64,000 nt of DNA from Nemertoderma westbladi. Taxonomy: Eukaryota; Animalia; Xenacoelomorpha. Of this stretch, positions 3,165 through 38,518 are shown piece after piece (the first letter of the stretch is position 1; every line of letters begins with the position of its first letter). The notes beneath the pieces were generated by a model, which had not been told where the DNA came from, searched no databases, and saw nothing but the letters and a program-made list of their open reading frames with translations. The DNA is taken from positions 52,590 to 116,589 of the forward strand of contig JAUCBJ010006780.1 of assembly GCA_032718475.1 (NCBI GenBank), written 5' to 3'. The translations under genes were made by a program, and so were the position numbers.

Positions 3165-5226
3165 TCTATATATATAAATATCGATTGTCTGTCTGTGTGT
3201 TTGTCATCGGCTATACAATCGAACCCATCTCGATGAAATCTCGCTTGCTATATCTCGTTAGAAAGGTCTCGCCCTAACTCGTTGCAACGTAATACTCAGA
3301 GCCGTCGGAAGTTCGCCCGTCTGCCGCTGGGCGATTTTCGTGATTTTCGGGCGAAATTTATCGAATTATTTCGGTTCTTCTATCGGTAATTAATGATTTA
3401 GAGGGCTAACATTTATCCCACCTGGTATAAAATTAACATGGGTAGATTCGCCGTGTCCCATTCTCACAAAGTTTTTATTTTATTCGAGTGTTTAATATAA
3501 ATATGTATGATTATTTATTGATTAAAAAGCAAATAGTGTATAAATATGTCATATTCGCCAAGCACGATCGAATTGGCCTATTCTTATTGAATAGGGAAGG
3601 ATTTTTTTCTGTATCATAGCAACGTTAAGGTAATTATTGAACTCACAGCTAGCTGGCTGGGCACAGATAAGGAGCAAGCAGGCTGGAGTGTTGATTGGGG
3701 TGGGTTTGGGTTGTCTATTGCGAATTGCTCAAGAGTAATTCTGCTTTCTCAATCATTGGCTGCATGGAAGGAGAGGGTTATAACATTTTTGTTTTACTGT
3801 TATGAATATTAAAAGTAAAATAATTATTTCTGTAGGCCTACATATACTTACTGTATTATTATTTTATCTAATATTATACATCTAATCTCCATGAAATCTC
3901 GCTTACTATAGCTCGTTAGATAGGTCTCGCCCTAACTCGTTGCAACGTAATACTCAGAGCCGTCTGAAGTTCCCCCATCTGCCGCTAGAGGGCGAATTGT
4001 CCGATAGTGAAAACCTGATCTCATTGGGTTGTTTTTAATGCTTTTGAGCTGAAACTTGGTAGCTATATACTGCAGCATAGGCTGTATCTTTACTGAGTGG
4101 CAGAGTCGTCTACAATTCCCCAGTCTACCGCTAGAGGGCGAAATGTCTGAAAGTTAACATCTTCTCCAACTTTGTTATTTATAATCCATTTAGACTGAAC
4201 TTGGTAGGCATCTACTACAGCATAGGCTATATCTTTACTGAGTCGCGCAGAGTTGTCTACATTACCCGCGTCTGCCTCTAGAGGGCGAAATGTATGAAAG
4301 TTAACATCTCCTCCAACTTTCTTATTTACAATCCTTTTATACTGAAACTTGGTAGGCATCTACTATAGCATAGGCTATATCTTTGCGGAGTAGTAGAGTC
4401 GTCTACAGTTCTACAGTCAGCCGCTAGAGGGCGAATTTTCTGATAGTGAATACCTCATCCCATTTGGTTCTTTTTAATCATTTTGAGCTGAAACTTGGTT
4501 GGTATCTACTACATCATAGGCTGTATCTTTACGGGGTTGCAGAATCCTATTCACTTCCCCAGTCTACCGCTAGAGGGTGAAATGTCTGAAAGTTAACATC
4601 TTCTCCAACTTTGTTATTTACTAACGGTTTAGACTGAAACTTGGTAGGCATCTACTACAGCATAGGCTGTACCTTTACGGAGTCACAGAGTTGTATACAG
4701 TCCCCCCATCTGCCGCTAGAGGGCGACATATCTGATAGTGAACACCTCATCCCATTTGGTTCTTTTTAATCCTATTGAGCTGGAACTTGGCAGGAATCTA
4801 CTACAGCATATTCTGTATCTTTACGGAGTCCCAGAGTCGTCTACAGTTCTTCAGTCTACCGCTAGAGGGTGAAATGTCTGAATGTGAACATCTACACCAA
4901 TTTTGTTATTTACAATCTGTTTAAGCTGAAACTTGAAAGGCAGGCATTTTACTTCACCATAAACCCCATCTTTACCAAACTGCAGCGCCGTCTGCATTTC
5001 ACCAGTCCGCAGGTAGAGGGTGGATCTGAAAGTGATCATTTTCTGGAAATTTTGATATTTACAATCTGCCTAAAGTTGAAACTTGACAGTTATCTCTTAT
5101 GGGGGTGGTGTTTTATTTAATGATGGTGTCTGTTCCGTATGCAGTTCTCAAATCTCCCACACATATTCATATATCATCTGCACGTGCACTAGAAAGCTGT
5201 GGCCCGAAGGGCCACAGGCTTTCTAG
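3165..5226 (+). mobile_element. Non-autonomous Helitron-like unit B
   Basis: Starts TCTATATATATAAA followed by a (TGTC)n microsatellite; ends in a GC-rich hairpin plus CTAG; no TSD; close paralogue of 6905-9130. 5'-TC, 3'-CTAG and a subterminal hairpin are Helitron hallmarks. Confidence 0.8.
3900..5050 (+). repeat. 146-bp tandem repeat inside Helitron unit B
   Basis: Core CCGCTAGAGGGYG (or a one-base variant) at 3982, 4128, 4275, 4421, 4567, 4713 and 4859, i.e. 146-147-bp spacing. Confidence 0.85.
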
Positions 5227-6904
5227 TCTATCTATATATATAAATATCCTCTGTCTGTCTGTGAGTCTGTGAGTCTGTGAGTCTATGAGTCTGTGAGTCT
5301 GTCCAAGCTATACGCTCCGACACACGAGCACCAATCTGAGCGAATGATACATCGATCGAAAGCTCTCGTCCCGAGCACGTAAACTATCGCTATCTCGAGG
5401 CTTATTTTACGCGTTTGCTTGCGTGAATGCGTATTTTGTATTCGCTACAACATGTTGTGTGATAAAATCTCAAAGTGATTCGAATATTCCTTTTGGCAGT
5501 ACAGGCCTGGCAAAGCTGAGAGTTAGTTAGCAAGGCAGCTAGCTACTTGCAGACCAATCATAGGTGGCCTGCAGCAGGCTGGGTTGGTTAAGTAGTAATC
5601 TCAATAAATAGGACCCAGCAGGAGAGTGGAGTGGATCTACTGTGATTGGTTCTTGACTTACATTGGTAAGAACAAGCAGTAAATCTTAGATTAGCTTTTT
5701 TTCAGTTCACATATTGTTTATAATCATAAACACAAAATGATTCAATTATTCATTTTTGCAATGTACCGGATGGGTGCTAGCGAGGTAGGCCTAGCAGGTC
5801 GTCAGTCCGTCATCCTACAAGTTGGATCTTGACTCTATCATGTGCGTGCACCTATATAATGCAGACCATCCTCAGCCCGTGAACATGAATTGTAAAGGCT
5901 ATCTCGAGGCTGATTTTTTACACATTTACTTGATACTTGCATGAATGCGTCTTTGAGGAAAATTGCATTATTCTGCAGTTGTTTTGTTATCGGAGAAATT
6001 ACTGATCAGCAAGCAGGAAATTATAACAGCAGTTATTGCATCATCGTAACCACTCTGCTGACACTTTGCAGAATAAATTCTACCTGACCATAGCTGCGTG
6101 TTGGGAGGACGCCGACCAGTTTGCAGTTCTTCAGTCTGCCACTAGGAGGCGAAATGTCTGAAAGTGAAAATCTTATCCTATCTTGTTATTAATAATGATT
6201 TTTAGCTGAGACTTAGGTCCTTTACACAATATGTTTATAATGTTTTTTTTGCTGATACCAAGCAGAGTATACTACACCGTAGGGTGTGTATTTGGGCTTG
6301 GGGAGACGATGACTAATCTTCAGTTCCCCAGTCTGCCGCTATTAGGGGATGAAATGTCTGAATGAGGAAACCTACAATTTTGTTGTTTATGAATACTTTT
6401 TTGCTGATACTTGGCATTTGGCAGAGGACTACTACACCATAGTCGTCATGTTTGGGGAGGACGCTAACCAGTGCATAATTATGCAGTCTGCCACTAGGGG
6501 GCGAAATGTCTGAAATTAAAACCTTCCATTTTAATACGATAGAGTTGCTGCAGTGACCTACTGCACTATAGGTTATGTTTGCGAGGACGCTAACCACTAC
6601 TCTGCAGTTATACAGTTTTCCACTAAGGGGAAAATATTACACACAGTTTAAACCTTTTCACATTTTATTATTTGTAATCCATTGGAGGTGTTACTTGGAA
6701 GGTATCTACTACAACATAAAGCCTTATGTTTATTATTGTATGTACTGTAGCTGCAACTAAAACGGGATCAGTCTGTTAGTCTTATGTAAAGTTTTGTTAA
6801 GTTAATTAATTTATTTATTTATGTTTGATATTGTCCATTGATTGATTGATTGTATAGAAGCTTGTGAACTAGAAAGCCGTGGCCGAAGGCCACGGGCTTT
6901 CTAG
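5227..6904 (+). mobile_element. Non-autonomous Helitron-like unit C
   Basis: Starts TCTATCTATATATATAAA with (TCTGTGAG)n; ends CTAGAAAGCCGTGGCC-GAA-GGCCACGGGCTTTCTAG; contains degenerate versions of the 146-bp repeat. Confidence 0.75.
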
Positions 6905-9130
6905 TCTAATATATATAAATCTCGATTGTCTGTCTGTCTGTCTGTCTGTGTGTTTGTCATCGGCTATACAATCGAACCCATCTCGATGAAATCTCGCTTG
7001 CTATATCTCGTTAGAAAGGTCTCGCCCTAACTCGTTGCAACGTAATACTCAGAGCCGTCTGAAGTTCGCCCGTCTGCCGCTAGAGGGCGATTTTCGTGAT
7101 TTTCGGGCGAAATTTATCGAATTATTTCGGTTCTTCTATCGGTAATTAATGATTTAGAGGGCTAACATTTATCCCACCTGGTATAAAATTAACATGGGTA
7201 GATTCGCCGTGTCCCATTCTCACAAAGTTTTTATTTTATTCGAGTGTTTAATATAAATATGTATGATTATTTATTGATTAAAAATCAAATAGTGTATAAA
7301 TATGTCATATTCGCCAAGCACGATCGAATTGGCCTATTGCTATTGAATAGGGAAGGATTGTTTTCTGTATCATAGCAACGTTAAGGTAATTATTGAACTC
7401 GCAGCTAGCTGGCTGGGCACAGATAAGGAGCAAGCAGGCTGGAGTGTTGATTGGGGTGGGTTTGGGTTGTCTATTGCTAATTGCTCAGAGTAATTCTGCT
7501 TTTTCAATCATTGGCTGCAGGGAAGGACAGGTTTATAACATTTTTGTTTTACTGTTATGAATATTAAAAGGAAAATAATTATTTCTGTAGGCCTATACTT
7601 ACAGTACTGTATTATTATTTTATCTAATAGTATACATCTAATCTCGATGAAATCTCGCTTACTATAGCTCGTTAGATAGGTCTCGCCCTAAGTCGTTGCA
7701 ACGTAATACTCAGAGCCGTCTGAAGTTCCCCCGTCTGCCGCTAGAGGGCGAATTGTCCGATAGTGAAAACCTGATCTTATTGGGTTGTTTTTAATGCTTT
7801 TGAGCTGAAACTTGGTAGCTATATACTGCAGCATAGGCTGTATTATTTCCGGAGTCACTGGGTTGTCTACAGTTCCCCAGTCTACCGTTAGAGGGCTAAA
7901 TGTCTGAGAGTTAACATCTTCTCCAACTTTGTTATTTACAATCCGTTTAGACTGAAACTTGGTAGGCATCTACTACAGCATAGACTGTATCTTTACTGAG
8001 TAGCAGAGTCGTCTACAATTCCCCGGTCTACCGCTAGAGGGCGAAATGTCTGAAAGTTAACATCTTCTCCAACTTTGTTATTTATAATCCATTTAGACTG
8101 AACTTGGTAGGCATCTACTACAGCATAGGCTATATCTTTACTGAGTCGCGCAGAGTTGTCTACAGTACCCGCGTCTGCCGCTAGAGGGCGAAATGTATGA
8201 AAGTTAACATCTTCTCCAACTTTGTTATTTACAATCCTTTTAGACTGAAACTTGGTAGGGCATCTACTATAGCATAGGCTATATCTTTGCGGAGTAGTAG
8301 AGTTGTCTACAGTTCCACAGTCAGCCGCAAGAGGGCGAATTGTCTGATAGTGAAAACCTCATCCCATTTGGTTCTTTTTAATCATTTTGAGCTGAAACTT
8401 GGTTGGTATCTACTACATCATAGGCTCTATCTTTACGGAGTTGCAGAGTCCTATACACTTCCCCGGTCTACCGCTAGAGGGTGAAATGTCTGAAAGTTAA
8501 CATCTTCTCCAACTTTGTTATTTACAAACGGTTTAGACTGAAACTTGGTAGGCATCTACTACAGCATAGGCTCTACATTTACTGAGTCGCAGAGTTGTAT
8601 ACAGTTCCCCTATCTGCCGCTAGAGGGCGAATTGTCTGTTAGTGAACACCTCATCCCAATTGGTTCTTTTTAATCCCTTTGAGCTGGAACTTGGCAGGAA
8701 TCTACTACAGCATATTCTGTATCTTTACGGAGTCCCAGAGTCGTCTACAGTTCTTCAGTCTACCGCTAGAGGGTGAAATGTCTGAATGTGAACATCTACA
8801 CCAATTTTGTTATTTACAATCTGTTTAAGCTGAAACTTGAAAGGCAGGCATTTTACTTCACCATAAACCCCATCTTTACCAAACTGCAGCGTCGTCTGCA
8901 TTTCACCAGTCCGCAGGTAGAGGGTGGATCTGAAAGTGATAATTTTCTGGAAATTTTGTTATTTACAATCTGCCTAAAGTTGAAACTTGACAGTTATCTC
9001 TTATGGGGGTGGTGTTTTATTTAATGATGGTGTCTGTTCCGTATGCAGTTCTCCAATCTCCCACACATATTCATATATAATCTGCACGTGCACTAGAAAG
9101 CTGTGGCCCGAAGGGCCACAGGCTTTCTAG
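6905..9130 (+). mobile_element. Non-autonomous Helitron-like unit D
   Basis: Starts TCTAATATATATAAA; ends in a hairpin plus CTAG followed by T; paralogue of unit B with one extra internal repeat. Confidence 0.8.
7650..8950 (+). repeat. 146-bp tandem repeat inside Helitron unit D
   Basis: Core motif at 7738, 7885, 8031, 8178, 8325, 8471, 8617 and 8763. Confidence 0.85.
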
Positions 9131-11790
9131 TAATAATAGAAATAGGAGTAAATATTAAACAATAGGCCTACACAGATAGGCCTACAAAGCATGCAAATTA
9201 ATTTCACAATTTTTGTAAGGAAAGGAGCAGGTTACATAGGCAGGCTTTTCTAACCGATACAATAAACGGCCCTTTTACCAATTGCTGAATTGTGGGAAAG
9301 GAGCAGGTTGCAGATAAACGATCACTGTACCATATGGTCAGACAGTCGGTCAGACTGTAAATGGCGATGTTAAATTCGGTCGATACGTAATAACTATGTT
9401 ACATTCGATCCTGATTACGTTCGGTCATGTAGGCCTACCACGAAAATTTAATTGTCAACTACAATGTTTTGTTCTTTCATAGATCGTTCAGGGAATATTT
9501 AAAGCTCTTTGAACATTAATTGAATATTTTAAGTTCAAACAAATTTTACCATGAAAATTTAATTATTAAAAATAATTAATAATATGGACACAGGAATAAG
9601 AAATTGATAGCAGCGTTTGCCAATATTATCGTTCTCTTAGTTTTACACGTTTACGGTTAGGTTTAGGTTACGGTTAGGATAGGTTTACTTACATACAATG
9701 ATTAAACAATAATTACAACAGATAAAGAAAAACGAAAAGAAAAAGAACAACATAATATTATAATAAATTGAAACACGTTCGTGGGGCCATCGCGCAGGAC
9801 GAGGCTCAGTTATCAGATACAGATTAAAATTGAGCGACAGTATCACAAAATCAGGTTTTGAGAAATTTACCCATACCACCAATCAATCAAAGAAAGGGGG
9901 ACAGTATGTGTTCACCCCTTTTAATCTGCCTTGACGTGTTCGATTTTGGAATTTACTTAAAGGCTTACTAAATTTGTTAAGTCCAAACAGTCAATAAAAG
10001 CTGTTTTTCATTTTCCAGCTCTAGCTGTCTAGTAAACAATGCAGTATCCTAAGGTACTGTATGATTGGAAGTTACCATGTAGATCCATGGTTGGTTACTG
10101 GTTCTAAGTATTCCTTGCATTTGATTGCTGGACGCCATTTTAGTTTTATACTGCAGTGCGACATGCCTTTGTTCAGTATTCTTCTTTAACAGTTAGCTAG
10201 AAGACGTGTTTGCCTTTTAACATCTGGCTTAGAATCCGGAGAATTATAGTAAATTACCGTGGTACAGTGTGCTGCCGTTTGTTGCACACTGTAACGCAGT
10301 GCTGGGGTACACTCAAAGTACTGAAACACCATTAAACACTCTATTGCACTGATTTACTGTTGTAACTGTTAAATTATTATATTTGATAGGCAATTATTGT
10401 ATATTTGGTAATGATATGGAGGGAGATGCTGCAAGATTAATACCGCATAACTTCGAACTATCGAACTTCGAATTTATATTCATATTTAACGCAGTAAGCT
10501 TTTAGGGGGTTAATTAGCAGTCTCGGTTCACAATCAATTGCAGTGTATGAGAATATATGTTATCAGATAGCCCCAGTGTGTGTGCCTGTCTACTCCTTAT
10601 ACATGAATAAAATTGCCTCAAGTGAGCAAGTCAGTGTCCAGAGTGTATTTCATCCGGTCCATAATACCATGCTTATAAAGAGTATGCAGGCTAGTTCTTG
10701 TTAACAATCTGTTGTAATTACCAAGAGGGCCATCCAACGCCCATGTGATGTGAAGTATACAATATAGTAGTAGTGAAAAACACAGGTTACAGAATGGCTG
10801 AATCTAACCAAAACAATAAACGAATAAGTATCTATACAGGTTATAAGACAGAAATAAGCGCTATAAAACACTTAATAAAGATAAATTTAAAAAAAAATAA
10901 AAATCTTTATATATAAAATTCCAATACAATCCAATAATTTATTTCATTAAACGTCCGTGGTAAAACAACCTACAGTAATAATAGCCTCTACATAGATTTG
11001 AATTCATTACAAACCTCCTACAAACTTACGGAGTGTTGTTCTATGGGGAAGCGAAGGTGTTCTGTCCGAATTGAAATCGATTAAAGAAACACTGGATTAG
11101 ATGTAAACACCATCTATCATTCATGGCCTATCAATATGGATTCTTTTGTGGTGTTTAAATTGCCGCACAGAGTGTTAATGCCTATTATTATCACACATGT
11201 GTTCATTCATTCACGACTAATATATTTAATGCACAATGGATTAACTTTTTTAGGCCAAATAATATAATACACCATCGTGATACCAATTCATATTCATACC
11301 TTGAACAGTTCGAAATTATTGCGAAGTAACAATTTAGTAAATAAAATAAAAAAACTTTACATTTAATTTGCCGTTTTAATGTATAAAGTTGCCGAGCGCG
11401 AGTTTCAGTGATCGTAAGCGCGTGAGGTCATTTATACTTCGATAGGTAAATGTAGGTAAAACGTTTTTGGTACCGTTTTTAATGTAATGTGAAATTGAAT
11501 TGTTAAAATTCCTTTCAAGATGAAGTATACAGAATGATGTGGGATGTGGTCATTCTTCGTTCACCGAAAGTAAAAGTAGACCACTGTGGCACATACATGT
11601 ATGTACCAGCAGTACTCGGTTTTTCTAGAAGTGACGTGTAAGACAGGGCAACACAATACAGCTAAACGCCTATGAATACAGCCTATGCACATCACAGTAA
11701 TGCTTGGTGCTACCTTAGTACAACGGATACAACTAAATCACATGTCTATAGGAATATTTTCCTCGAACTGATATTTAAAGATAAATCTTT

Positions 11791-14002
11791 TGTTACGGTA
11801 TATGGCGCTGTATCCACATTATTAGTCGTTATACTGTATGCATTATTAGTCCGTTATGCAGTATGCAATATTAGTCCGTTATACTGTACGTAATATTAGT
11901 CCATTGTGCAGCATGGTATTTTAGATAAGGCATAATAACGCAGTGGTATTTAGATAGGGAAATCGAAACACCCATATATTTGAATCCATCCATTTTGTAT
12001 AGTATGTAGCCCTACCTACGTAATTTTGTATTAGGATATATGTAGATAGTTCCAGGGTAGCGAGTTTATTCGGACCCTGGATTTTGTGCTTGCTGATATT
12101 AGCATCGATAGGGCTAGCATATAGGGACGCTGTCCTGGCCATTCAGCAGCCAGGGACGTGAACCATTACCATATATGGTAATAATTTGAGGTTTGGGCAA
12201 GCGATAGGGCTACAATCCGGCCTCCTTATTGGACTAACTGCTTCCAGGTTGGTCTAATGCTAGCACGGACTGGAGAGCCAATAGGAGAGCGATTGAGTCA
12301 CCCTATTGCATCACCCCATCCGGATCACCTATAAATTGGCGGTGTGCCGGTAGAGCCTCACATGACACCTCACATGATCTGCTATCACCTTTGTACTTGT
12401 TGAGCTGTCTCTATTCAATTTTGACGGATATTTTAGCGTATTTTCTGCAATTTGCTAATTTTGATTAATTTCTTGGAATGATTTGCTAGTGCGATTACTC
12501 TCGATTGTGTTTCTCAATTAATTCCTTCAATTACTGCTAATTACAACTGAACTATGATTTCTACTTTTTGATTAATGGTTCTATGTGATTCCTTTCTGCG
12601 CAATAATCCTAAGGGATTTCTGAGACTGTCAGACTTTGTGATTTGCATGCGCCGCTACGGTAGCTATTAGCATAATGGAGGGCTAAGGTGCCAGTGGGCG
12701 GTGGGCACATCGGGAGGTTGAGCGACTAGGAGAGAGCGGAGGATTCAAGGCGGGCAACGCTGGCTAGGGTCACCGTTGCGGGCGGGTATCTTGCACTGTA
12801 ACACGCAGACCATTCGCCGATACAGTAACTAGGGGGCTGATGATCCAGATTTTGTCTCTATTTAGTATTAGGGGGGCAGGAATCGGGTTAGTTAGGAATC
12901 CTAGATGTATTCGGGAGAGGCCTGCGCGTACTACAACGTTGAGTGTAGAGTACGAGTAGTGAATCGCATAATTGTGGGCTATACAGTAGTTAACTGCATA
13001 ATTGCGAACTGTGATTGCTGACGCTGATTGGTGTGTTATTGAAGTGTGCCTATGATTATGAATGTTTAGGTAGGCGCCCTTTTCTTTTGATTGATTTCTA
13101 TTTCTTAGTTACAATAATTAGTTACTGATTAGGTCAAAGTAATACGGCAATTTAGGCTATTACTAGCGAAACCTGTTGCGTAATAAATTAGAATTACGTA
13201 TTCTGGAACTCTTAGTAATTAGTACGCTGTTAAATATTTGTGACTGTAATTGATTAGTAAAAATTAAGAATTAGTACGCAGCATAGCGGAGAGTAGCTAA
13301 GGTAATAATTAGAGTACTGTAAACTATTCACGCTGAGCGGTTATTTGCATTAGCGGGCAATCAGCTAGATCGCACTATTCGGTACGCACGATACGCTAGT
13401 AATTTGCTGGCCTAAAGCCAGCCGCAGGCAAGTTTCGACCCAGAGTGGTACTATCCACGTAGAAACAATTACTGTATCATTTTGATTATTTTAAATATTC
13501 TCGCATTCACACATTACGTTAGGGAACCTCCAGTATTCGCGATTAGAAAGACGTAGACAATAGCGTGTTTTAATAGTGATAGAATTAGGCGTAAGAATAC
13601 TCTGAGTGCAAGGCCTCTCGTACTCGTCTTAAGTAAGCTTAGGGAGCCGACTCGGGTTTATTGTTTTGGTTATTCCCGCGTGGCTCATAGATTCGAACAG
13701 TTAGCTCTCTATCGAGCGATCGGTAGAGAAAGGAACAAGCGATTTTGCAGGAGTTGTGTAAAATTAGTAAAATATATTAGCGGACGGCAGATTAGCGCCA
13801 TCCAACGGTAAGTAGCGGTTTTGTATTTAGCCACCTTTACAATTTAGTAATATCACGCTCCTGATCCCCTTTACTTAACAGTAGAGCATTCTTTGTGTCT
13901 TATTGGTTAGGCGAGAGCTCATTAGGTTGACAGAAGGATATTAACGGGTATTGGTCTGTTCAACAGTTCTGCTGTTAGTATAGAGGTCGCGGTTGTTTAT
14001 CA
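11791..14002 (+). repeat. 5' LTR of Bel/Pao copy 1
   Basis: TGTTACGG...GTTTATCA; only about five substitutions seen by eye versus 29667-31878. Confidence 0.95.
12228..12335 (+). promoter_or_regulatory. LTR promoter: CCAAT boxes and TATA box
   Basis: ATTGG 12228-12232, CCAAT 12278-12282 and TATAAA 12330-12335, conserved in all four LTR copies. AATAAA at 13182-13187 is a candidate poly(A) signal. Confidence 0.55.
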
Positions 14003-15185
14003 GTAATACGCGCATTATTGGCTGTTGCTTGCAGCAGTCAATAGTGTATTCTTAGGCTGATTAGTAGTATCACAGTATTAAGTAATAAGTTGGAGCACGT
14101 GATCGTCTGCTGTAGGCTATAGGCTAGCGTACGGTAGAACATTAAGTATATTCTTTTAGGCTGTTAGTTTAGATTACTGTATTCACTGGCTGCGTACAAT
14201 AGTACAGTAGTACATTAGGCTGATTGCTGTTACTGCGTACGGTAGAAGGGACATTTGTTTTGCCGTACCACACATAGTATCATTAGGCTGTTAGGTTGGT
14301 GTACTGTTTTACTTACTGTACTGCATACAGTGAATGTACGGTAGTGCGTTTTGCTAATTGCGAATACAGCAGTTCCTTAGGCCTTAGGGCAAATTGTAAT
14401 TAGTAAGTTTTTTGAAAATTATTAGCTAGGTTTGCGAGAATTCAGTTTCGGTCAAAATTATTTTGTAAAATTCTAGAGTTTTGTACCGGTATGTTAGGTA
14501 ACCGCTTAGTTATTTTATACCATCTGGAGATACATGGCAAGACGGAACTTCTGAGTTTGGGGTTCGTGTGGGTCTGCGGGTTCAGTTTGCAATCAGCGAA
14601 GGGCCTGAATCTTTGGACGCGGACGTGGAATCTCACAGCAAACAAGGTTAGTTGTTCTGTTGGCACCATTTTGTTTGTGGAAGCAGTAAAAAATTATCGG
14701 TTGTTTAACTGCGAAGCTGAACTCAATTTATTAGTTAGGATATTTAGGTTTAGGTTTTTTGAATCGCTCAAGTTAGAGAGAGAGTTAGAGAGAGTCGCAA
14801 CCCGAAGATGTAGCCACGCGCTAGTGGATACATATAATATTTGAAATTAAAATTACGTTAATTAGAGCTATATATATATAAAATTAGAAATATTCGGGCG
14901 GCAAGTATATTTTGAATATTTTGTATTAGATTCAAAGTTATTTTGTGCTATACCGGTATTTAATGCTATATAGTAGCTATATAATAATATTTTTGTTTAA
15001 ATATTGTGTTAGTATTTGCTATAACTATATACCCCATTAAATTCACAATATTGCATTGCGAATTTATTTTGACATTTTGGACCAACTGATATTAGACAAA
15101 TAATTTAACCGTATTTCGGTTAAATTATAATTATATCTCGAACCTTTGCGAGATATTTTGCCGGAAGGCAAACATTATTTAGACT

Positions 15186-18100
15186 ATGAGTGTCTCAGAC
15201 AAAGAGGCACTAGAGGACAGCTATGAAACGGCGGCTGGACCGCCGACTGACGATAGCGTAAACATTACTGTTGATGACAATGCCGACTATGACGACGCAG
15301 CGAGCGACGCTGACGTAAGTGAACAGGAGGATGAGACAGTGACTAGTGAGGAAGAACAACAACCTCAAGTAATAGTATTAGGATCCCTTACCGCTACTGA
15401 TAGGAAGGACTGTACGGCAGCCCGGACAGAGGTGAGTGATAGGGAGGGTAGTGTAGCAGAAGCGAGAGCCCGGAGCCCGGTTTCCAGACCTGTGGGTATG
15501 GTAAGTGCCGTGGTCCCAACGGCTGTAAGGAGTACCCGTAGTTCCCGAAATAATCCTTCAAGTCCACCGAGTGTGAGTCAGGTAAGCGAGAGAGAACTAG
15601 ACATTGCGATAAAGAAGAAACTTCGCGCGCATGCCGGACATATAACTCGGACGGTGGACAAGGTAAGGAAGATGTTAGCTGACTCAGCGAACATCGGGAG
15701 GGTAGAGTTAGTAGAGATTAGAAGAGGATATAACTCAGCGTTATTCAAGCAGACGGAGGAGCTTGCAGTCCTAGCGAAGAAGGCAGTAGAGTCTCAGTCG
15801 AGCGACATGGCGACGAGGATTTACGACAGGGTTTTAGCAGCCTTGTTGGAGCACCGCGAGTTATCGGAGCGATTCCGACGAGTTAGGACGGAGAACTGGC
15901 TGCTATGGGCATCACAAGCGCAGGCGACTCAAGTGAGTGATGCAGAGTTGAGAGAGTTAGTGGAGCGAGAAGAGATCCAAGACAAGGAGGAGCGCAGTTA
16001 TCAAAGGGAAGTTACTAGCTGGCTGATGCAGAATGGAGTGGTGGTACCACGCCAGGTGCTACCGACGACGGAGAACATCCAACAGAGGACGTTGACTCCA
16101 CCCGACGACGCATCTAGAGACAGCGGCGATTCCCAGGTTAGTCACGCGCGAGGTAAGGTAATATGTGCTAGATCCCTTGTTTCGCACAACTCGGCGGAGG
16201 AGAGAAGACGCCGACTGGACGAACAGCAGGCGGAAGTTTTGCGTGCATCGGAAGCACGGAAGGAAGCCGAGCGGGAACGGGAGCGAACACGTAAGTTAGA
16301 CGCGAAGTTGCGCGAATTGGAAGAGAAAGGTAAGCGTGAGCGAGCGGAACGCGAGCAGAAGGAACGTGAACTTCAACTTGAACGCGAACGCAAGGAACGC
16401 GAACTCGAACTTGAACGCGAGCAGAAAGAACGCGAACTCCAGCTCGAACGCGAACGCAAAGAACGCGAACTCCAGCTCGAACGCGAACAGAAGAAACGCG
16501 AACTCGAACTTGAACGCGAACGCAAGGAACGCGAACTCGAGATCGAGAAAGAGCGACAAGCGTTGTATGAAGAAAGGGCGCGTGTGGAAGAAGAGGGCGC
16601 AGCGAGACGAGCGAGGGAAGAAGAAGAACGTAAACTGGCGCAGTTGGAAAGTGCGAGATTAAGTTTAGAGAGCGAAGAACGGACTAGGAAGGCGAATGAA
16701 ATCGCCGAGAAGGGGATGCGAATGATCAAAGAATGTGGGGCGAGTGTAGGGACTGAGTTGCGAGAACTGTTCGCACTGCAGAAGGCCAAACAGGAAGCGA
16801 GAACTCCGACTATACGCGAGTCGACGACGACCAGAATTCCTATACCCGGTCCAGCTATTACGAGTACACGGATCGCTAAACCGTTCTCTACATATCGCAC
16901 GCCAGTTGGTATTAGTGCTTCACCCATCGCCCAGGATCTACGTCATCGGAACACCGCACCACTATATACCGAACGCGACAACGGAGAGTTTAGAGAAACT
17001 CCGACAGGACGAGTACTTGGCGAACCGAACCCGCGGGTTTGGAATACACGGACGGAGCGCCGACCCTGTTCGACGGAGAACTTCTGGGTTAAACCGGAAG
17101 AGGGATCATATGAGAGACAGCGGATTACTCAGATAGAGCCGACTATACAACAGAACCCTAGCCAGGAATTTATTACGAGAGATGAGTTAAGTGCTAGTTT
17201 AGCGCAAGCTATATCGCCGCACATCCAACCTATAACGGACATGCTTAGCAACCTACGGTTAAAGGAAGCAGCCCAGGTAAGAAGTAATTCAAATCCCAGC
17301 AGGCCTGAATTAGATAAAGTCCAGCCTAGTCAACGAGTACGTATATCGGAGGAGACTATACCACATAGACCTCAGGTAAGGACGCCTGATCCCTGACGCC
17401 ATAATCCCAATTTCGAAAATTCGGCGGAAAGATTTATTGAGGAAGCTTGGGTCAGGGCCTCGGCGCGCAAACCATCGCGAGCGCTAAGGACTGACACCGA
17501 GTCAAGCGATGAAGAGGAAGAAATGAGACGTCAGAAGTCCCGAAACTATAAGGAAAGAAGGACCGACGCGGAGCAGGTAAGTTGGAACCACCGGGAAAGG
17601 ACCAGACTTAACAACCCTGCGGAACTAAACCATTTGTTAACCCGGAACGACGCAACCCTTAGAGACATAGGTAAGTTTGCTGCTAGGCAAGGACTGCCGA
17701 CGCAACAACCCCAGAAGTTTATGGGCAACCACAAGCACTGGAGGACGTTTAAAACCTATGTCGACGAGCAGCTAACCAACAGCACCTTTACTCCCAACGA
17801 GAAGTTCAACTATTTGCTTCAGATGCTCCATCGAGAACCTAGAGCCATTGCTGATAACTTCGTCGGCAATGAACGGGCATTCGAATTAGCGATGAAGACG
17901 CTTAGCGACATCTACGGGAATAAAACGAAGATGGCGCAGTCGATAGTAGAAGACTTGGGTAAGGGCGGAAGGATTACAACTCCGTTAGAGCTGTTGAACT
18001 TAGCGAACGCTATTTCGAACGCATTGGACATCTTGAGGACGGTGAATCTACCTCATCATGGTGATCACGCCGAAGTTTTAAAGAGCGTAATAAGACGTTT

Positions 18101-21100
18101 AAACATGCGTTATCGACAGAAATGGCGCAAATTAGAGAATAAGTTGGAGGGCCAAGGTAAGGTATTGACACTTCAGCATATTCATGACATGATAGCCACA
18201 GACGCAGTAGCAGAGATGAAATCAAACTTCTCAGAGGAGAACATGAGGGAGTCTAAACCTGTTATCGGTAAGTCTATGGTAAGATGACAGGACCACTGTG
18301 ACATTTAACTCAGTAGACAGATATAATTCGAGTACCCCAGCCTTTAGATCAGACTCGCGAGTATGGTCAGGTGAGCGGTTAGATAGACCTAGGTTAAAGC
18401 AACAGGAGTTGCCGGATGGATTTGTAGGTTGCCAATACTGTTTACTAAAGGAGGTAAGATCTGACGACCATAAGTTAGATAGTTGCAGACGGTTCAAAGA
18501 ATTAAATTCGGAACAGAGAAGAGTTCAAGTGCGGACGTTGGCCACCTGTTGGGCATGTCTTGCGCCAGGACATGTACGGCGGCAGTGCCCGAACAGCAAG
18601 GACGGATGCATGGAATGCGGCAGACTACATCACAAGTTGCTACATGCGGATTTCCACACCCCAACGGACCGTTACTTACAGCGAAATCCTCACAGGAAGG
18701 GGAGCAAAGAACCCGTATTGATAAGGAGGAATACGTACACCGGCATTCAGGACGATGGTTACCAACCAGGTTCGTCGGACGAGGATGGCGAGTCGAGCGC
18801 GAGAGAAGTGACCTGCCAAGGTTTCACCGCGGATAGTTCATCGACCAGCGCGCGGACGTATTTATCATCGGCCACGTCGGAAATATTCAGCGTAATTCCG
18901 GTGAAACTCACTGGCGATAAGGGATCGAAGCGAATATATGTGATGTTGGACACTGCGTCCACATTATCATATATCGACGAGGAAGTGGCGAGAGCCGTTT
19001 CTAGCTTCCAGGACGCCGAGGAGATCCAAATAGAGTTGAAGTCTATGCACGGGGTAGGAGACCTCAAGGGACACAGAATTTCGGTGGAACTAGACTCCCT
19101 ACTTCCGAGAGACCAACACACTCGACAAGAACGGAAAGCTTTGCCATTGGACGGATTTAAGTGTCTAGCTATGAAGGGATTCGGCAGGCAGTTAGGTAAG
19201 GTGCCGCCGATGAGTCCCATAGCACAGGAGTATTTTGACAAGCTCAGGATACCCAGACACCAGGTAGGTTATAGGAATGTTTCTATGTTGATTGGTGCAG
19301 AACAGCTGATCGCACACCAAATATGGGAAACGAGACCAGCTGAGCCGCATGTCAATGGACCACATGCCCATAGGACCATACTAGGTTGGTATACACGAGT
19401 ACCCATGTCTTATGAGTTTACAGGTGGCGACAAGCCAATAAACAGATACGACGAATTACAGCCTATAATTCAACCACCGTTAGTAGAACCACCAGACATA
19501 GACGAGTTTAGGAGAACCTGTATTGACCACTATAGTGACTTTAGCGAGTCGGACGAGGAGTTGATTCCCGATAATGTTAGGTTGTCGGAACCACTTCATA
19601 ACGACCAGACAGATAGTGAACCCGAGGACTACTGTTATCAGACCCGTGGGTCTGGTTCAGCGGCCCACGCTACCTATTTGACTAATGTTTTGACTTATAC
19701 AGACATAGTGGAGGGTCAAGTGGCTAAATATCGAGACCTAGACATTTTCCAATACAGTGAGGAGGAATTACAGAAGGAATTGATACGCCAGGACCTCGAG
19801 ACAGGAGCCAGAACCGTCGAATGGCTGGATAGGGACGCAATGGAACCCGGTGGATATGACCTAGCCATGTCTACTGATGAGAAACGGTCGCTGGAGATGA
19901 TGGAAGATACCATACGTCTGCTACCGACTGGACATTTTGAAGTTGGAATGTTGTGGCGTCGACAACCACCTAAGTTGGAGAACAACTACAACTTAGCCTT
20001 GAAAAGATTAAACGGAGTAAGGGCTCGGTTGTTGAAGAATCCGGACATTAGGGAGAAGTATTGCGCCCAGATCAACAACTATTTCGCCAAGGGATTTGCT
20101 GGGAAGGTAGAGGACCCTGACTTAGTGACAGACCAGACTTATTACCCTCCACACCACTATGTGACTCACCCTGACAAGCCAGACAAAGTCCGAGTAGTCA
20201 ACGACTGCGCAGCAGTCTATAGAGGTATGTCCCTGAATTCAGAGTTGATGGATGGTCCCAACCTGAACAACTATTTGATTGGAATACTGTTGCGTTTTAG
20301 ACAGCGGCGATTCGCATTTACTTGTGACATCGAGGCGATGTTCCACCAGGTAAGAGCCTGTAAGGCAGACCAGGATAGCCTTCGCTTTCTCTGGCACGAG
20401 AATGAAGACTTATCCGGCCCAGTGGTTACATACCAAATGTACGTAAGGATATTTGGCGCCCGCGATAGTCCGAATGGCACGCTGTTCGTTTTAAAGAAAA
20501 CGGCAACAGCCCAAATTGGTAAGTACCCAGTAGAAGTAATCGAGTCCATCTTGAGAAACTTCTACATGGACGACGGATTGGTGTCCAAGGACACAGCGGA
20601 ACAAGCCATAGAAGTGGCTCACGGCCTGCAAGAGTGCTTGGCTACAGGGGGATTTCCTCTAACCAAGTTCACTACGAACTCGGAGGCCCTATTAGAATCG
20701 TTCCCGGTGAAAGATCGCGGGAGCGGAGACATAGAATTGGGGGTAGAACCAATCCCCATGGCGCGAGTACTGGGACTCGCTTGGAACCCGAACTCAGATA
20801 AGTTCCAGGTAAGAGTTAGATTTGAGCCCAGTAGCCCAGACAAAGTTTTGACAAATAGGATTTGCTTATCGACATTAAGTAGACTATTTGACCCGATGAA
20901 TTTTATCAGTCCGGTTATATTACAGGCACGAGCGTGCATGAGGAAAATTTGGTTGTCCGACTTAGAGTGGGACGAACCGATATCTCCTATACATGCAAAG
21001 CAGTGGAGGGAGTGGGAAGCCGAGTTACATCTATTGAAAAACATAGACGTACCCCGTTCCTACTTTCCGAATCAGCTGGTATTTCCAGCTGATCTCGAAC

Positions 21101-23538
21101 TGCATTTGTTCAGTGACGCAAGTGACACCGGCTTTGGTATGGTAGCCTACCTTCGCCGAGAGGTAAGTCAGGACAAGTTTGAGACGGCCTTTGTAACTTC
21201 TAGATCAAAGACAATGCCGGTAAAATACATGACTGTCCCTCGTGCAGAGTTACAGGCGGCTGTAGTTTCGGTCGAGGTAAGTAAGCAGATAATTGAGGAG
21301 TTAGACACGACATTGACCTTATTCTATTGGACGGACGCATCCTTGGTGTTAGTATACATTGCGGCCGACAATATTGCACTAAAGACATTTGTGGCCAATA
21401 GACGCGCTCAGATCGTCGACTTTTCGACGAAGGAACAATGGAGACATTGTCCGGGAGTGTTGAACCCGGCCGACATAACTTCGAGAGGTGCAATGCCGGC
21501 GGAATTCTGTCAGGAAGAGTCGCAGGAGTTTTGGTTGCATGGACCTGATTTTCTAACGAGGACCCAGGAACATTGGCCAGAGCGACTAAAGATTGTGACC
21601 AATCCGATGCCTGAAGATGCAGAAGTCAAGGTGGAGAAAGTCTCTAAGTCGAAGTCTAAAGCCAAACTCAAGTCATTGGAGCGGCCTGAAGAGTCATTGG
21701 AGCGGCCTGAAGAGTCATTGGAGCGGCCCGGAGACCTGTCAGACCAACAGACTTACGTGACTACTAGGTCCGGAAGGGTAAGTTACGACGTAAAACCACC
21801 CTTACAGACTAAACCGGAGTCACAATTGGTAAGTGACGGACAGAAAATGACCGACACAATGGAGTCTTTGGTTTCCAAACCTGCGGGTTTGGATTCGAAA
21901 CTTCCATTAATTAGCGGACAACCGTCGCTGGCATTAGAGTCATGCAGTATTTATGACAAATTACTAAATTCGTCTGCCTCTTGGCTGACAATTTGTAAAA
22001 GAACTGCGTGGTTAAGCCGATACATTTTGTACCTTTGTTTAAAACATTCGAAACATTTGAGAGAACCATTGAGCACCAATAGTGAGCGAATTCGGAAATT
22101 GAAACAACCTCTGACAAAGGATGAGATTGATCAAGCGGAATTAAAGCATTTGAAACATTATCAAGTGTGTGCCTTCCCAAAGGAATTCCATCTATTATCG
22201 GCTCAACGACCAGTTCTCTATAAACCCCTTAGAAAATGGAGTCCATTAATCCATAAGGGTTTAATTTGTCATAGATCGAGAATCCAGACTGTCGACATAA
22301 ACTCACAGTTTCGGTTCCCAGTGATAATCCCTAGTCACCCAATAGAATTGCAAAGAGCGATTCTATGGGATATACACAAGAGGTTGCATCACGCGGGAAA
22401 GTTACACTGTCTGTCGGCAGCGAGACAGCGATTCATTCTATTGCAGCCAAGCAGGGCAGTCGGCACTATGTATGACGCCTGTCTGGTTTGCAAGAGGGTG
22501 AACGCCAGAGTATTGGAACAGGAGATGGCTGAACTCCCGGAAGCGAGAGTGCAGGCATATGACCCACCCTTTACGAACACAGGGGTGGATTGTTTTGGTC
22601 CGATTGAAGCAAAGAGTGGACGGCTGACCCACAAGCGATGGGGTCTGCTACTGATATGCATGGCTAGTAGAGCCATACACATTGAGCGTGTGGCAGACAT
22701 GTCGACCAAATCTCTGCTCCTGGCCTTAAAGAGATTTATGGCCAGGAGAGGACTAGTAAAGGCGTTCTACTCTGATAAGGGTACAAACTTTGTCGGAGGG
22801 AATAGCGAGTTGAACGCGGCTCATAAAGCGGCACAGAATAAAGAAATTTCTGCAGCACTTTTGCCGCAAAGAGTAGAGTGGAGATTCAATACTCCAGAAA
22901 GTCCTTGGAGAGGAGGAAGTTGGGAGAGTTTAGTTCGCTCTGTAAAGCAGGCCATTGCCAAGACGTTGCCTGTAAACAAACAACTTACCGACGACGAACT
23001 GGTCACAGCTTTCATTGAAATCGAGCATACCCTAAACTCGAGGCCGATAGCTATGTTGCCAGACGGTGTTGCATTAACGCCGAATCATTTGCTAATGCAG
23101 AGTCCAGCATTTCTTGTGCCGGCATCAGAACCCGTTAGTGCCGACCTATATAGTCGTAAGAGCTGGAAAATGACTCAATTAGTCGCGTACACATTCTGGG
23201 AATATTGGCGGGAATACTATCTTCCCACCATATCCACCAGAACAAAGTGGTACAAAACGGTTCGGAGTCTCCAAAGGGGAGATTACGTACTGATAACCGA
23301 GCCGATTGTCAAGAGAAAGTATTGGGAGACTGGAGTGATCTTGCACACACACCCAGAAGTGCAAAACATAGTGCGCACAGTCACTGTGAAAATTAGGTGC
23401 AAGTGTCCGCACCCAAAAAAGTGTAAAACTAATGGTTTACACACCTTGGACCGACCGGTCCAAGATATTGTGTTATTAGAGGAGACACGTATCGAGACGG
23501 GAGATTATAATTTGTCTCCTGCCTCTAAACTGAATTAG
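15186..23538 (+). pseudogene. gag-pol: Bel/Pao gag-pol polyprotein, disrupted (ancestrally one ORF of ~2790 codons)
   Basis: E/R/K coiled coil; Pao-type gag core (FMGNHKHWRTF...EKFNYL); Cys/His knuckles (CWACLAPGHVRRQC, CMECGRLHHKLLH); protease MLDTAST; RT CDIEAMFHQV and FYMDD; RNase H LHLFSDAS, VPRAELQAA, WTDAS; integrase HKRLHH..CLVC, GVDCFGP, SDKGTNF, GGSWE. Lesions relative to copy 2: TGA at 17394-17396 and an 8-bp deletion at ~18283. Confidence 0.95.
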
Positions 23539-24304
23539 TGTTGGGCGCAACTCACTTCGTATGCATTCCTCGTATGCAAATACAAGGAAATGCATAGGAG
23601 CGGGGTTGTGGTGATTTGCGTTGAGTTTTGTCTAGTGGGTATCAAAACAAAATTTTATTCTCAAAATTTTTGGAAAAAATTAAAATTTTAAAAAATTAGA
23701 AGTGAACCCAAGACAATTCCAGACGCTGTGTATAGACGCATTTTGAATTCGTCTATAGATAAACAGTAATTTGAAAAGTCGTGAAGCCTGGAAAATAGCA
23801 TTTAGAAACCATGGTGACGGCTATATTACGTAGGAGTGTAAATTGAGTTTAGCAACTTCCACAGATTGGTGCCAACAGTGCAACTAAGGTGCTAAAGGTT
23901 AGTAGCACTAGAGGCGTACATGGACCCCACTCAGTAGTTTGCAGGATGTGTGATGTTCGATTATCAAACCTGTGGGTTTGGTATAGTCGAGTATTGTGGC
24001 TATAGTCCTTTCTAACTACTGTAGTTTAGTACGAGTAATGGGAGTAGTTTGGGCATCAAAAAGTGAGTTGGTCACGGCCAGTTTATCACCAAAGTTTTTG
24101 CGCTATGCATGGGAATAGGTTAGAGGATAGTTAGTTAGGAAGAGACGGGATCTAGAGAGTCGAACCTGAACTGCTGGAAGGCGGGGGGGGGGGTTCGGGA
24201 GGTCTGTCCTTCGGCGACATCTAACTGATTTACCCACAGTGTAATTGGTTACGTAACGGCACTTATTGGGATATATATATATATATGTATATACGCGAGG
24301 CATA

Positions 24305-27300
24305 ATGGAGAGGGATATTAGAGCGCAACCGCGCAGAGGATTTACTGCCAGAGAGGAGGCGGAGCTACCATTCGCGCGACCAGGATGTAAAGACTCTAAC
24401 GTTTACTACCATGGGCGGTCCGTGATGGAGCTAAACGGGAAATACAAGCCGAGTTATGATAAAGAATTACGGAGGGAAAGAATGAGAGCGTTGGGGGACC
24501 GGATGGAAGTTTTGCGGAGAGAGTATCGCACGCGGTATCCCTACGACTTCGCTTTGGACGAATGTGACATTAGCGCAGATCCGGACGAGGAAATCGCACG
24601 ACTATACCATATGAATATGTATTTACGACACGAGGAGCCTCTACCTGCAGTCCGAGATCAGTTCGACGGAATGCATCTGTACCGGAGGACTCGAGGTGAG
24701 GATCAGGAGACGCCGAAAGTCTTCAGCGTGTACAAGCTGTTCTACAAGTGTGGTGAATGCATGAATAAGCAGGACGTGGCGATTCCCGACCGATTAGATG
24801 AGCAACATCCAGAACCGATATTAACGCGATGTCCAGCTCACCAATTCCTTAGATACAACGAGGGAGGTTACCCGATGAGCAACCCGATGATCAGTATCGA
24901 CTTCAGCGGAAAGCGACCTCCGAGACCCATTACGCCGACCGTTACGACATTAGATCCGTATACGGAGATTAAACCCTGTTCGACACCCAGTTTGATAGAG
25001 ACGGCAGCGGCCATTTCGCTGTACCGAGCCTACAAGGATCTAGAGGCGCGGCGCGAAGCGGCGCGGGACTCGGGTACCAAACCCGCGGGTTTGGAGCTCT
25101 CGAGTCCCTGGACTGCGTTTACTTCACCTCACCGAGTGAGAAGCCTCACGCCTGAGCATCAGGACGACATAGACGCGTTGCGGCAGGAGGAGCGAGCGGC
25201 GAAGGCGAAAGAGTTATTTGAGAACAGGATAGCGGAGTATAATAAGACCGCGGATAGACATCAAGAGGAGACGAGGAGAGTGACCGGATTTGTTCCACAG
25301 GTCGTATCTCAACCCGGACCGGTGTATTATTCCGACGGCACCGAACCTGCGATATTAGTAGATCATCCGGAGTCGCGAGAAGCGATACGATTCTTGCCGA
25401 TGGTAAGGATGGCGGACCATTGGAACGTTGACTGTCTACGGGAAGTTTTATGCGCGAAGTTCTTGCGTGATGTCCCAATGCAGATCACAGATTACGACAC
25501 GTTGGATAAGATTGGAGCTCCGGGGAAGGAGAGTAAGCTATTCGGATGGTTGGATAAGTACATCAAGGTATGGGTCGCGGTGGCTACATTCCCAGATGAC
25601 GAGGAGGTAGACCAGACGTGGCTGAGGAGGAAGGGTTCTTATACCCGATATGATGACCACAAGGCTATCGAGCGCATGTGGACCCCATCAGACGAGATTC
25701 AGCGTCAGTGGAGGAAAACGGAGGAATCACTGCAGGATTGGAGGGTGATGTTCTACGACAATGAAGGAGGGTCCCATCAGGAATGTTTGACCAGCAAGTG
25801 TATTCAAATTCGTGCGGCCGATGGTGTGACTCATGTGTTTATGCGTGTGAGGGCGGATCAAGAGAGACCGGAGCCCATCATAACGACACAATATCGGAAG
25901 GGGAAGGATCCTAGGGAACAGATTTTGGAGGTATGCAGGCGAGGAGGTATGCACGGAGCGGAGCGTATCGACGCCAGGATGTTACCCAAGAAAGTTAGAG
26001 AGGCTATTCTCAACCAAGATTACGTCAAGGTGGGATCGGGAGTCCAGAGCGATTTGGAGAGTGACTTCAACGCCATGACTGATCTGGAAGATAGATTGCC
26101 GAGACCGTTTGTCGACACCAAGCTATTGTTGCTATGGGCACAGGATATTGGAATTTATAGGGAGTATCCCAACTCTGCCAAGACTGGTATGGGCTTTATA
26201 GCACACTTGTTGTATAATTGGGACTTTAAGTTAAAGACGCAGAAGAAGTACGAGGAGGCGTATGGCGAATACAACACGCCACCGGGAGCGGAGTTCAAAT
26301 CCCACTTCAAGCGGCAAGCGTTAGTGTATTGGAACATTTGCGCACCACCCCGTGCGTCGCTACAATATTATTTGGTGCTTGAGTCGAACACGGTGACTTG
26401 TTTATTAGCGGATATCGTTGCGCGAGTTTTGAAGCGTCATCCATTGGTATTCGGAGGAGATCAATACGTTCGCTCGAAAGGGGGAATCCAATCCGACGTG
26501 ATGAAGCGTTTCTTAACCCCGTTCTTCAACCAATCGTTAGAGAATACGTCGATGGTTAGGAGAGGATTAGCGATATTCGAAGGAGTATATCGACAGAACA
26601 TCGGAGATTTGGGAGACCGACCGTCGATGGAATATCCGACGCCAGAAGCTTTGGAGAAGTGGTTCGGGAATCAAACCCGCGGGTTTGGTACTCCCTTCCA
26701 CTCGGAGGCTGATAGACCTGTTAAGGAGGGCTGGCCGGAGACGTTAGTAGAGGTGTTCGGAGTAGATCTTCCGGTGGAGAAGACATATCCGAAACGAACG
26801 CGGGAGGAAATATTGGAGATAGAGGACAAGGGCGAGGATGTTTACTTTGTTCCGGATCGACAACCGTTGACCGGAGAGGACGACATCGTATTAGACATTG
26901 GGAAGGAAGGAAGTGCAAAACCGATTGGAGACCTCATATACGAGAGGGCCTGGTTTCCACAAGCGCGTAGGTGCAAATTGTGCGGCAGCACAAGGCACAA
27001 TCTAAAGTCGTGCGACGCGGTAGTAGAGGCGGCGCATAAGGTCTGTCGTTGGTGTAATGAGACCGACCATTCGTTTCACACGTGCACCGTCTTCATTTCT
27101 CAATGTGGATATTGTGGGGTAAAGGGACATCGTAGCGTGAGATGTCAGCTGCGAGATGATTCCTTTCAAAACCATAGCGCTAACCTACTTCGGGAGATGT
27201 TAGATAAGTGGGAGGGTGTGGCCGATTACCATATTCAAGCGCAGATGCGTTGGTTACCATTTAAAGCGGGATATGGGTTTTGGGCGGTAGACCCATCGCA

Positions 27301-28896: not shown

Positions 28897-29666
28897 GCAG
28901 CGCAAGGCGCAGGGGGCGTCGGAGAAGGCGCGAGTGCAACTGCATAAGGAAGAGTTGGCGGAAGCGACCACGGGAGCGCGACAATTGGGACAAGGCCGAG
29001 GAAGAAGCACAAGCCGGGAGTCTGTCGGGGCTCAGGGAACGTCGTCGCCGGTTCCGGGGAGTGATGCCTCACGGACGCCGTCAACGGAGTCGACTAGAGG
29101 ACGACTGGTGTATCTGGGAAGAGGGCGAAAGAGAGGAGCGAGCCCAAAGAACCCAGGAGCGGGTCGATAATACATTATAGCACAGGGCGACAGACTCTAG
29201 ATATATACATCATCGTCGCTCTGATGTATATTGTAGCATTTGGAAATCTTCGACTAGACTCATATACACTAGTTGAGTTATTTTGGAATTTATATTATGA
29301 GAGAGGCGAAGGAAGTGATTGGGGAGACAAACCTGCGGGTTTGGCTTACTCCTTTCACTTGCCCTAGCCAATTTTTATATTTGATTTTGTATGTAGTAAT
29401 CATTATGTAGTAAGAATGAACGAGAAACAATATTTTGTAAATTTAATTTGTATGTAATAATCGTTAAACAATGAGAGAGATAATATTTTTGTAAATTTAA
29501 TTTGTATGCAATTCATTATGCAATATCTATAGCAATATTTGTAAATAGTAGGATTTATAGTATCAAGTGTTTAGATTGGTTGGAAGAAATTTATTTTGTT
29601 TTGTATACATCACCTTATACTCTTCTACAATTGGAGGGAAACATTGTATGATTTCCCTTGGAGCGG

Positions 29667-31878: not shown

Positions 31879-32075
31879 TCTTTAATTCGGAAACTTCATC
31901 GCGAACGGATCAAAACAAATCAATTGGCACATAAAATTATTTTCTAAAATAAGTGTAGTCACTTACATCAACAATATATTACCTGAAGAAATAATTAGAC
32001 GAAACATTTAGCCTGAAATATTATTTACTTTTTTGTATATGTAGGCCTATTTCTTAGGTATAACACTTTGTTTAA

Positions 32076-38203: not shown

Positions 38204-38518
38204 TATGTAGTAATGGAACGGTTCAGCCAGTCCAATCTAACCAGACTGCCGTCAAACCGGTAGCCGGCCTATATATTCGGATGAGTCTAATATACGCTAC
38301 GCGTATATCACACAATCTCTGTTTCAAATTTCATGCAATGTCATAAAAATTGTGGTGGGATGGGGGGTGGGGGGGGGGGGGGGGGGGGCAGGGGTGGGGT
38401 CCCAGTACAGTGTACTGTACATACAAGTCTATTATGTTTATTACCTGCTTACATTCAATCTTAATTACAAATAATCCACTACTGGTTCGTAAATCAGTCA
38501 TGAATATCACCAACAATT

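Follow-up and report, generated by a model that had tools for sequence, protein, structure and literature searches.

How does an LTR element whose proteins are of the Bel/Pao type begin minus-strand synthesis when no tRNA site follows its 5' LTR? The ICTV describes the Belpaoviridae as having an 18-nt primer-binding site (PBS) for host tRNA-Arg or tRNA-Gly, LTRs of 0.2–1.2 kb and genomes of 4.2–10 kb (PMC8742986). Tf1-type gypsy elements have been shown to prime themselves, and a few plant lineages are predicted to do so; in the ICTV account Bel/Pao is tRNA-primed. We examined the question in a stretch of 64,000 nucleotides from a contig of Nemertoderma westbladi (JAUCBJ010006780.1; hereafter the window), in contigs of public sequencing runs and in related Bel/Pao loci. 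Coordinates are those of the window, and features lie on its forward strand unless stated otherwise.

Two copies of a Bel/Pao element and their primer-binding position

One LTR element is present twice in the window, as copy 1 at 11791–31878 and copy 2 at 44089–62948. Copy 1 is 20,088 bp (~20.1 kb) long and lies between two TCTTT target-site duplications (TSDs; 11786–11790 and 31879–31883). Its LTRs (11791–14002 and 29667–31878) are 2212 bp long and differ from each other at 5 positions; they have the TG...CA ends that, with a TSD, characterise a Bel/Pao LTR. In copy 2, the 3' LTR (61064–62948) is truncated, being cut at 62948, and the end of the 5' LTR (44089–46271) was placed by homology. 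For copy 1, the end of the 3' LTR at 31878 and the identity of the two LTRs set the end of the 5' LTR at 14002. This agrees with the sequence-only reading, which had taken the same end from the TSD and had seen no TGG after it. Two contigs of run X4 diverge from the reference directly after 14002/14003.

Pfam matches define a Bel/Pao-type Gag-Pol, comprising a gag region (DUF1759; 15183–18287) interrupted by a stop codon at 17394–17396 and a pol frame (18283–23538) with Peptidase_A17 (E 3e-38), Integrase_H2C2 and DUF5641, in which the integrase follows RT/RNase H. Pfam gave no chromodomain match in the element. The reading-frame breaks differ between the copies, each of which has its own set. 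Behind pol, copy 1 carries an extra frame of 1168 codons (24257–27763) with CCHC-like knuckles. The purine-rich run just before the 3' LTR (29660–29666 in copy 1) is only 7 nt long in both copies, as against a polypurine tract of ~10 nt in the Bel/Pao description. The element is like the Belpaoviridae in its LTRs, in a gag-pol with Peptidase_A17 and DUF5641, in an integrase placed after RNase H and in a 5-bp TSD, and unlike them in having no tRNA site, a 2.2 kb LTR, a length of 20.1 kb and an extra ORF that is not env-like by Pfam. It is Bel/Pao by protein, yet it lies outside the ICTV description for priming and size.

The window also contains a ~2.3 kb insertion in the leader of copy 2 (46434–48730), with a 657-codon frame and weak integrase and zinc-knuckle matches, and, at 33941–37589 on the minus strand, disrupted frames that match RT, RNase H and integrase and are probably a separate gypsy-type element. 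Tandem arrays are found at 38518–42418 (45-bp unit, 86 times), at 3955–4942 and 7711–8846 (146-bp unit) and at 61–1144 (358-bp unit).

The 14 nt that follow the LTR end contain no TGG in either copy, and no 18-nt tRNA PBS was found at either. The first TGG of copy 1 comes 16 nt after the LTR, and the first leader unit of copy 2 has none within 60 nt. The TGG 14–16 nt into the leader was rejected as a tRNA PBS, having no tRNA-like continuation and lying too far from the LTR. The PBS position of copy 1 (14003–14014) is complementary at 11 of 12 positions to a segment of its own LTR at 12923–12934 (the main site, with the same sequence at 30799–30810 in the 3' LTR), the exception being a C·A mismatch at 12931/14006. 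In copy 2 (PBS position 46272–46283, main site 45191–45202) the two segments form 10 Watson-Crick pairs and one G-U pair, and the first 10 of these positions match exactly. Two pairs are changed on both sides between the copies, and the 3' base of the site stands opposite the first base after the LTR. These relationships, together with the positions of the four 12-mers, had been proposed from the letters alone and were reproduced here. The same holds for the distance of ~590 nt from a TATA box; TATAAA stands at 12330, 593 nt upstream of the site, which itself lies within the 5' LTR ~1.08 kb upstream of the PBS.

Within each copy the 5' and 3' LTRs have the same site allele, which dates the changes to before insertion. 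One of the two double changes sits at a CpG. The PBS of copy 2 is shortened by 2 nt relative to the downstream leader, and because of this length difference the alignment of PBS positions 9–12 is ambiguous. Copy 2 also has an extra 96-nt leader unit and with it two PBS copies (46272–46377; the first 10 nt recur at 46368–46377), and the unit is well covered in both runs examined.

The pairing of PBS and site is far above chance. LTR complements of 11/12 or better occur at 58 of the 15652 internal 12-mers of copy 1 (~0.4% per position) and at 17 of the 1180 12-mers in its leader, and perfect LTR complements at 34 of 14782 internal 10-mers of copy 2. LTR substitutions between the copies affect 28 of 213 columns in CpG context and 101 of 1934 other columns; from these rates, the probability that both PBS changes were matched through drift alone is at most ~0.13 × 0.05 = 0.007. 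When LTR segments were ranked by duplex energy with the PBS, the main site came first in both copies. The converse ranking, of partners for the site, put the PBS first in copy 2 and in a tie with 13271 in copy 1.

Two spliced partners were considered and rejected. One was a junction of donor 12342 with acceptor 12436, which matches 9 nt of the copy 1 PBS; this donor lies only 12 nt past the TATA box, and copy 2 matches the junction by wobbles only. The other was the junction of a 74-nt intron-like segment near the LTR end (13808–13881), which has no pairing with the PBS.

An LTR complement of at least 10 nt, beginning 0–5 nt after the LTR, is the operational mark of self-priming, and at this position copy 2 shows 10/10 and copy 1 11/12. 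The same arrangement is found in the plant lineages Tcn1 (gypsy) and TAR/Houba/Osr-1 (copia), for which self-priming is predicted in the accessible text of PMC6317226. The element differs from these lineages in superfamily and kingdom, and a movable or splice-made primer is not described for them in that portion of the source.

Family variation, RNA ends and folding

We read family variation from contigs of public runs, none of the seven being recorded as RNA (contigs of four runs were compared with the window for copy 1, then of two runs for copy 2). The family is very abundant in these contigs; run X5, which is RNA by guess only, gave a few short pieces. At 12931, another letter, which pairs, makes up 24790 of 24832 contig depth in run X1 and 24750 of 24961 in run X3, and the single mismatch of copy 1 is private to copy 1. 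At 14013 (PBS position 11) a second letter reaches 61% and 55%, with a G-U pair kept. At 45200, one of the double-change positions, the other letter reaches 54% and 35% among the rows listed.

In four rare types of contig, unrelated PBS cores stand between the same LTR end and the same leader, namely AGGGTATGTT, GGTATGTTT and GGTATGTTA in X1 and AAAGCACGTTT in X3 (depths 59, 76, 7 and 219, against ~15,000). These cores match the main site at just 3–6 of 10 positions. The X1 cores pair without a break, by 8 Watson-Crick and 2 G-U pairs, with a cap-proximal segment at 44637–44646 (TATA+33 to +42). When random GT-starting 12-mers were scored in the same way, 0 of 400 reached this score close to that start and 62 of 400 reached it anywhere, in a null built after the matches had been noticed and with the three X1 types amounting to one event. 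The X3 core, from PBS position 2, forms 10 Watson-Crick pairs and 1 G-U pair with 45831–45841, which 5 of 400 random 12-mers equalled anywhere under the same null. The corresponding segment of copy 1 (13562–13572; 9 Watson-Crick and 2 G-U pairs) is a third LTR site, ~640 nt beyond the main one. The PBS core is hypervariable in the family, and the variant cores, which come from short contigs of low depth (7–219) and were paired against the LTRs of the window and not against their own, are predicted to pair with other LTR segments. Since unrelated cores stand on the same LTR end and leader, one tRNA cannot explain them.

The block at 12228–12335 contains CCAAT at 12228 (reverse) and 12278 and TATAAA at 12330, which we take to be promoter motifs; one TATAAA is seen in the LTR and 1.08 are expected from its composition. 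From TATA+27 onward, a block of 30 nt around the presumed start (12357–12387) is hypervariable between copy 1 and copy 2, and 12364–12373 within it pairs at 8 of 10 positions with a rare PBS variant. The pairing of variant PBSs at TATA+33 to +42 suggests that the TATA box marks a real start. With a real TATA promoter the main site would be internal to the RNA, which favours a cut at the duplex edge. An internal primer had been proposed in the earlier reading, and the variant pairing supports it indirectly. Equilibrium folding speaks against it: in copy 2 the duplex probability is 0.0 for an RNA from the TATA-driven start, 0.52–0.55 for one that begins 40 nt upstream of the site (second PBS copy included) and ~1.0 for one that begins at the site. 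In copy 1 it is at most 0.08.

Directly after the PBS, copy 1 has a stable hairpin (14013–14046; z −4.8), and copy 2 has a hairpin of different sequence at the same place (z −4.7). The only AATAAA of the LTR is at 13182–13187, and its first base varies in ~60% of contig depth.

Related Bel/Pao loci

Among the matches listed, the closest proteins are 33–43% identical to those of the element, the named ones coming from cnidarians, nemerteans, echinoderms, a hemichordate, a mollusc and a brachiopod, and PF05380 occurs in every one of the 120 homologs listed. A 40-sequence alignment used as query yielded 80 metagenome and 23 genome loci (103). A direct repeat surrounds pol in 51 of the 103, and in 25 loci (20 families) the repeat end can be read as an LTR end; these 25 were chosen before complementarity was tested, and contiguous and splice-junction complements were both scored.

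Complementarity of at least 10 nt to the locus's own LTR was found at 18 of the 25 loci under the stricter splice rules, as against 16 of 688 swapped pairs. In the lenient search, the PBS of 13 of the 20 families pairs over 10–15 nt across a GT..AG intron in the same element's LTR (for example L003, 7676–8094, L077 and L039), and most of the relatives' pairings span such introns, with predicted donors and acceptors of textbook form. Contiguous pairing over 11 nt is seen in L072 and L076, and L054 is ambiguous. The seven misses are three families with a TGG site (L045, L075 and L098), L004, whose acceptor did not pass the filter, L042, whose 3' LTR is changed on the donor side, L067, where the end is uncertain, and L083, which has a splice-junction pairing with one mismatch. 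In the sister pair L089/L091 two exon-end bases differ, and the PBSs differ in step. With the two window copies included, the pairing starts with GT in 18 of 23 scored rows. At L076, the PBS pairs with a joined form, lacking the intron, in the 3' LTR (6694–7103), whereas the 5' LTR (1–326) has an acceptor at the corresponding place; the contig is possibly chimeric.

The window element is like these relatives (L002–L096) in that no TGG is present and that a PBS, mostly starting with GT and 0–4 nt after the LTR, pairs with the element's own LTR. It differs from most of them, in which an LTR intron must be removed to form the partner and LTRs are 0.3–0.9 kb long, in that its partner is one uninterrupted segment, like those of L072 and of the L076 3' LTR, and lies far from the presumed start. 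A hairpin after the PBS is not general in the relatives (z below −2 in 1 of 25). ARAGORN found no tRNA in the 8 loci scanned of the 103, the exact LTR-end pattern had no match in metagenome contigs, and no relative was found in viral contigs.

A careful tree separates the three TGG loci from the remaining 33 rows with support of 92/97 and places the window on the side of the self-complementary loci; a quick tree gave the TGG split a support of 97. The Pol of the window is a long branch, and an AU test on 16 rows did not reject a grouping of the window with the TGG loci (p 0.35). Eight loci with animal-type Bel/Pao (L082, L083, L086, L089, L091, L095, L096 and L098) stand in records of bacterial MAGs or endosymbionts, likely as host contamination.

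How the primer may be made

The sequence-only reading had offered self-priming as a candidate mechanism. The hypervariable PBS with its LTR-pairing variants, and the excess of self-complementary relatives over swapped pairs, make self-priming of some kind quite likely. We also regard it as likely that priming dispenses with tRNA and that the PBS is rewritten from whichever LTR segment served as primer. Our more specific reading, towards which we lean, is that this family has no tRNA site and that the minus-strand primer is a segment of the element's own LTR, with which the 10–12 bases following the 5' LTR pair.

Transcription would start ~30 nt past the TATA box, so that the main site would belong to R, ~565 nt from the start of the RNA. 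It would fold onto the PBS, and cleavage at the edge of the duplex, most simply by the element's own RNase H as in Tf1, would free a 3'-OH at 12934, from which RT would copy ~1070 nt of LTR before jumping to the 3' R. Plus-strand synthesis in retroelements copies the attached primer, and the daughter PBS would here become the complement of the LTR segment that primed. Such rewriting would produce 'compensatory' changes instantly and make the primer site movable within the LTR. The third site is downstream of the only AATAAA, so its use would require a longer R.

The Tf1 primer is freed by RNase H, which cleaves between bases 11 and 12, according to the available sections of PMC7175516 and PMC4600332; the mechanism and the pretzel fold are treated in those sections and in excerpts of PMC5341516 and bioRxiv 10.1101/2022.12.06.519325. 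As in Tf1 and Tf2 of S. pombe, in Tj1 and in the Tf1/sushi group of Ty3/gypsy chromoviruses, the PBS of the element adjoins the 5' LTR and is complementary to 10–12 nt of its own LTR. Unlike theirs, its Pol is Bel/Pao and not that of a chromovirus. Its partner lies 593 nt past the TATA box, whereas the Tf1 partner is the first 11 nt, and the partner position varies among family variants. The three duplexes of the pretzel are also unsupported by controls here. Cofolding draws a second helix in both copies, and the third pretzel element is a local hairpin; the flanking helix is no better than controls, with 93 of 211 windows and 152 of 500 shuffles as good. Taken as a self-primer the element works like Tf1, but it is no member of Tf1/sushi.

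A mechanism closer to that of Tf1, in which the RNA either begins at a second start that lacks a TATA box or is spliced to the acceptor at 12865, so that the site comes to lie at its 5' end or close to it and the primer is short, is to our mind improbable. It would account for the duplex predicted at ~1.0 when the RNA begins at the site, and there are GC boxes at 12696, 12780 and 12873 and an acceptor-like tract at 12850–12865, 57 nt upstream of the site. Among the relatives, the TATA box of L024 stands 29–31 nt before the start of pairing, and 8 of 19 rows begin pairing exactly at a pyrimidine-purine step, compared with a background of 26%; in Tf2, alternative starts include or omit the self-primer, as stated in the portion of PMC5341516 consulted. 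Yet no TATA is found at −30 from the main site, no convincing donor was found upstream of 12865, and variant PBSs that pair at three LTR positions would need three starts. Variation in partner position speaks equally against a purely structural stem, serving packaging, translation or export while another primer or site does the priming, and this we likewise consider unlikely. The strong hairpins after the PBS in both copies mark the region as structured, and selection on a stem would also yield compensation. Against such a stem, the pairing register is anchored at the base that directly follows the LTR, the partner in relatives is mostly formed only by splicing, and no alternative tRNA site lies near the LTR end.

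Priming from the other end of the RNA is a still weaker prospect. Once trimming or cleavage had exposed it, the site's copy in the 3' R would prime on the PBS and circularise the RNA, with an exonuclease-like domain of the extra ORF as the trimming activity. The site is 259 nt upstream of the only AATAAA and hence present at both RNA ends, and a long R upstream of it would remain for strand transfer. Residues 455–730 of the extra ORF fall near atlas clusters of 3'-5' exonucleases (score 0.91; PF01612 in 24 of 30 matches), with the CCHC-like knuckles lying beyond this segment. On the other side, searches of Pfam, NCBIfam and PDB and two homolog searches gave no exonuclease match, and a single-sequence fold of the region has a pLDDT of 34. 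Copy 2 is without residues ~321–989 of the ORF, related loci have no homolog of it, and pairing between U3 and U5 is marginal, being equalled by 3 of 60 and 1 of 60 shuffles. That the extra ORF is an exonuclease-like gene is possible. Least probable, and by our estimate barely credible, is a host tRNA half or other small RNA as primer with an incidental LTR match. Half-tRNA priming is known in some copia lineages, going by the accessible text of PMC6317226, but unrelated PBS cores, four or more of them, are present within this one family, and every core has its complement in the LTR; Rfam found no match in the window.

Returning to self-priming from within the LTR, we suggest only tentatively that a large branch of animal Bel/Pao primes with its own RNA. 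In the present family, on this suggestion, the primer would be a segment from within the LTR, with a long tail at its 5' end and a position that can jump (cap-proximal, ~+565 and ~+1200), each PBS would be copied from the segment that primed, and the exonuclease-like protein might help to make the 3' end. What is new here is, apparently, the internal and seemingly movable primer site, together with the possible exonuclease-like extra gene. A self-encoded primer is said to have been proposed for a Cer element of C. elegans (Cer7). We found no description of a self-priming Bel/Pao in the literature searched, which omits most subscription papers, Repbase and supplements; none is named in the available portions of PMC554778, PMC8220671, PMC6934838, PMC3601003, PMC5443660 and PMC5445492, and the portion of PMC3118150 at hand has no mention of primer, PBS, tRNA or intron.

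If this account is right, a third LTR superfamily escapes dependence on host tRNA, and many Bel/Pao elements of aquatic animals that lack a recognisable PBS, and are missed by tRNA-based annotation, would be explained. A primer both internal and movable would demonstrate that priming does not require the capped end of the RNA. Primer and PBS would then co-evolve in a single step, and the variants of this family would offer a natural series for tests of primer-making by RT/RNase H.
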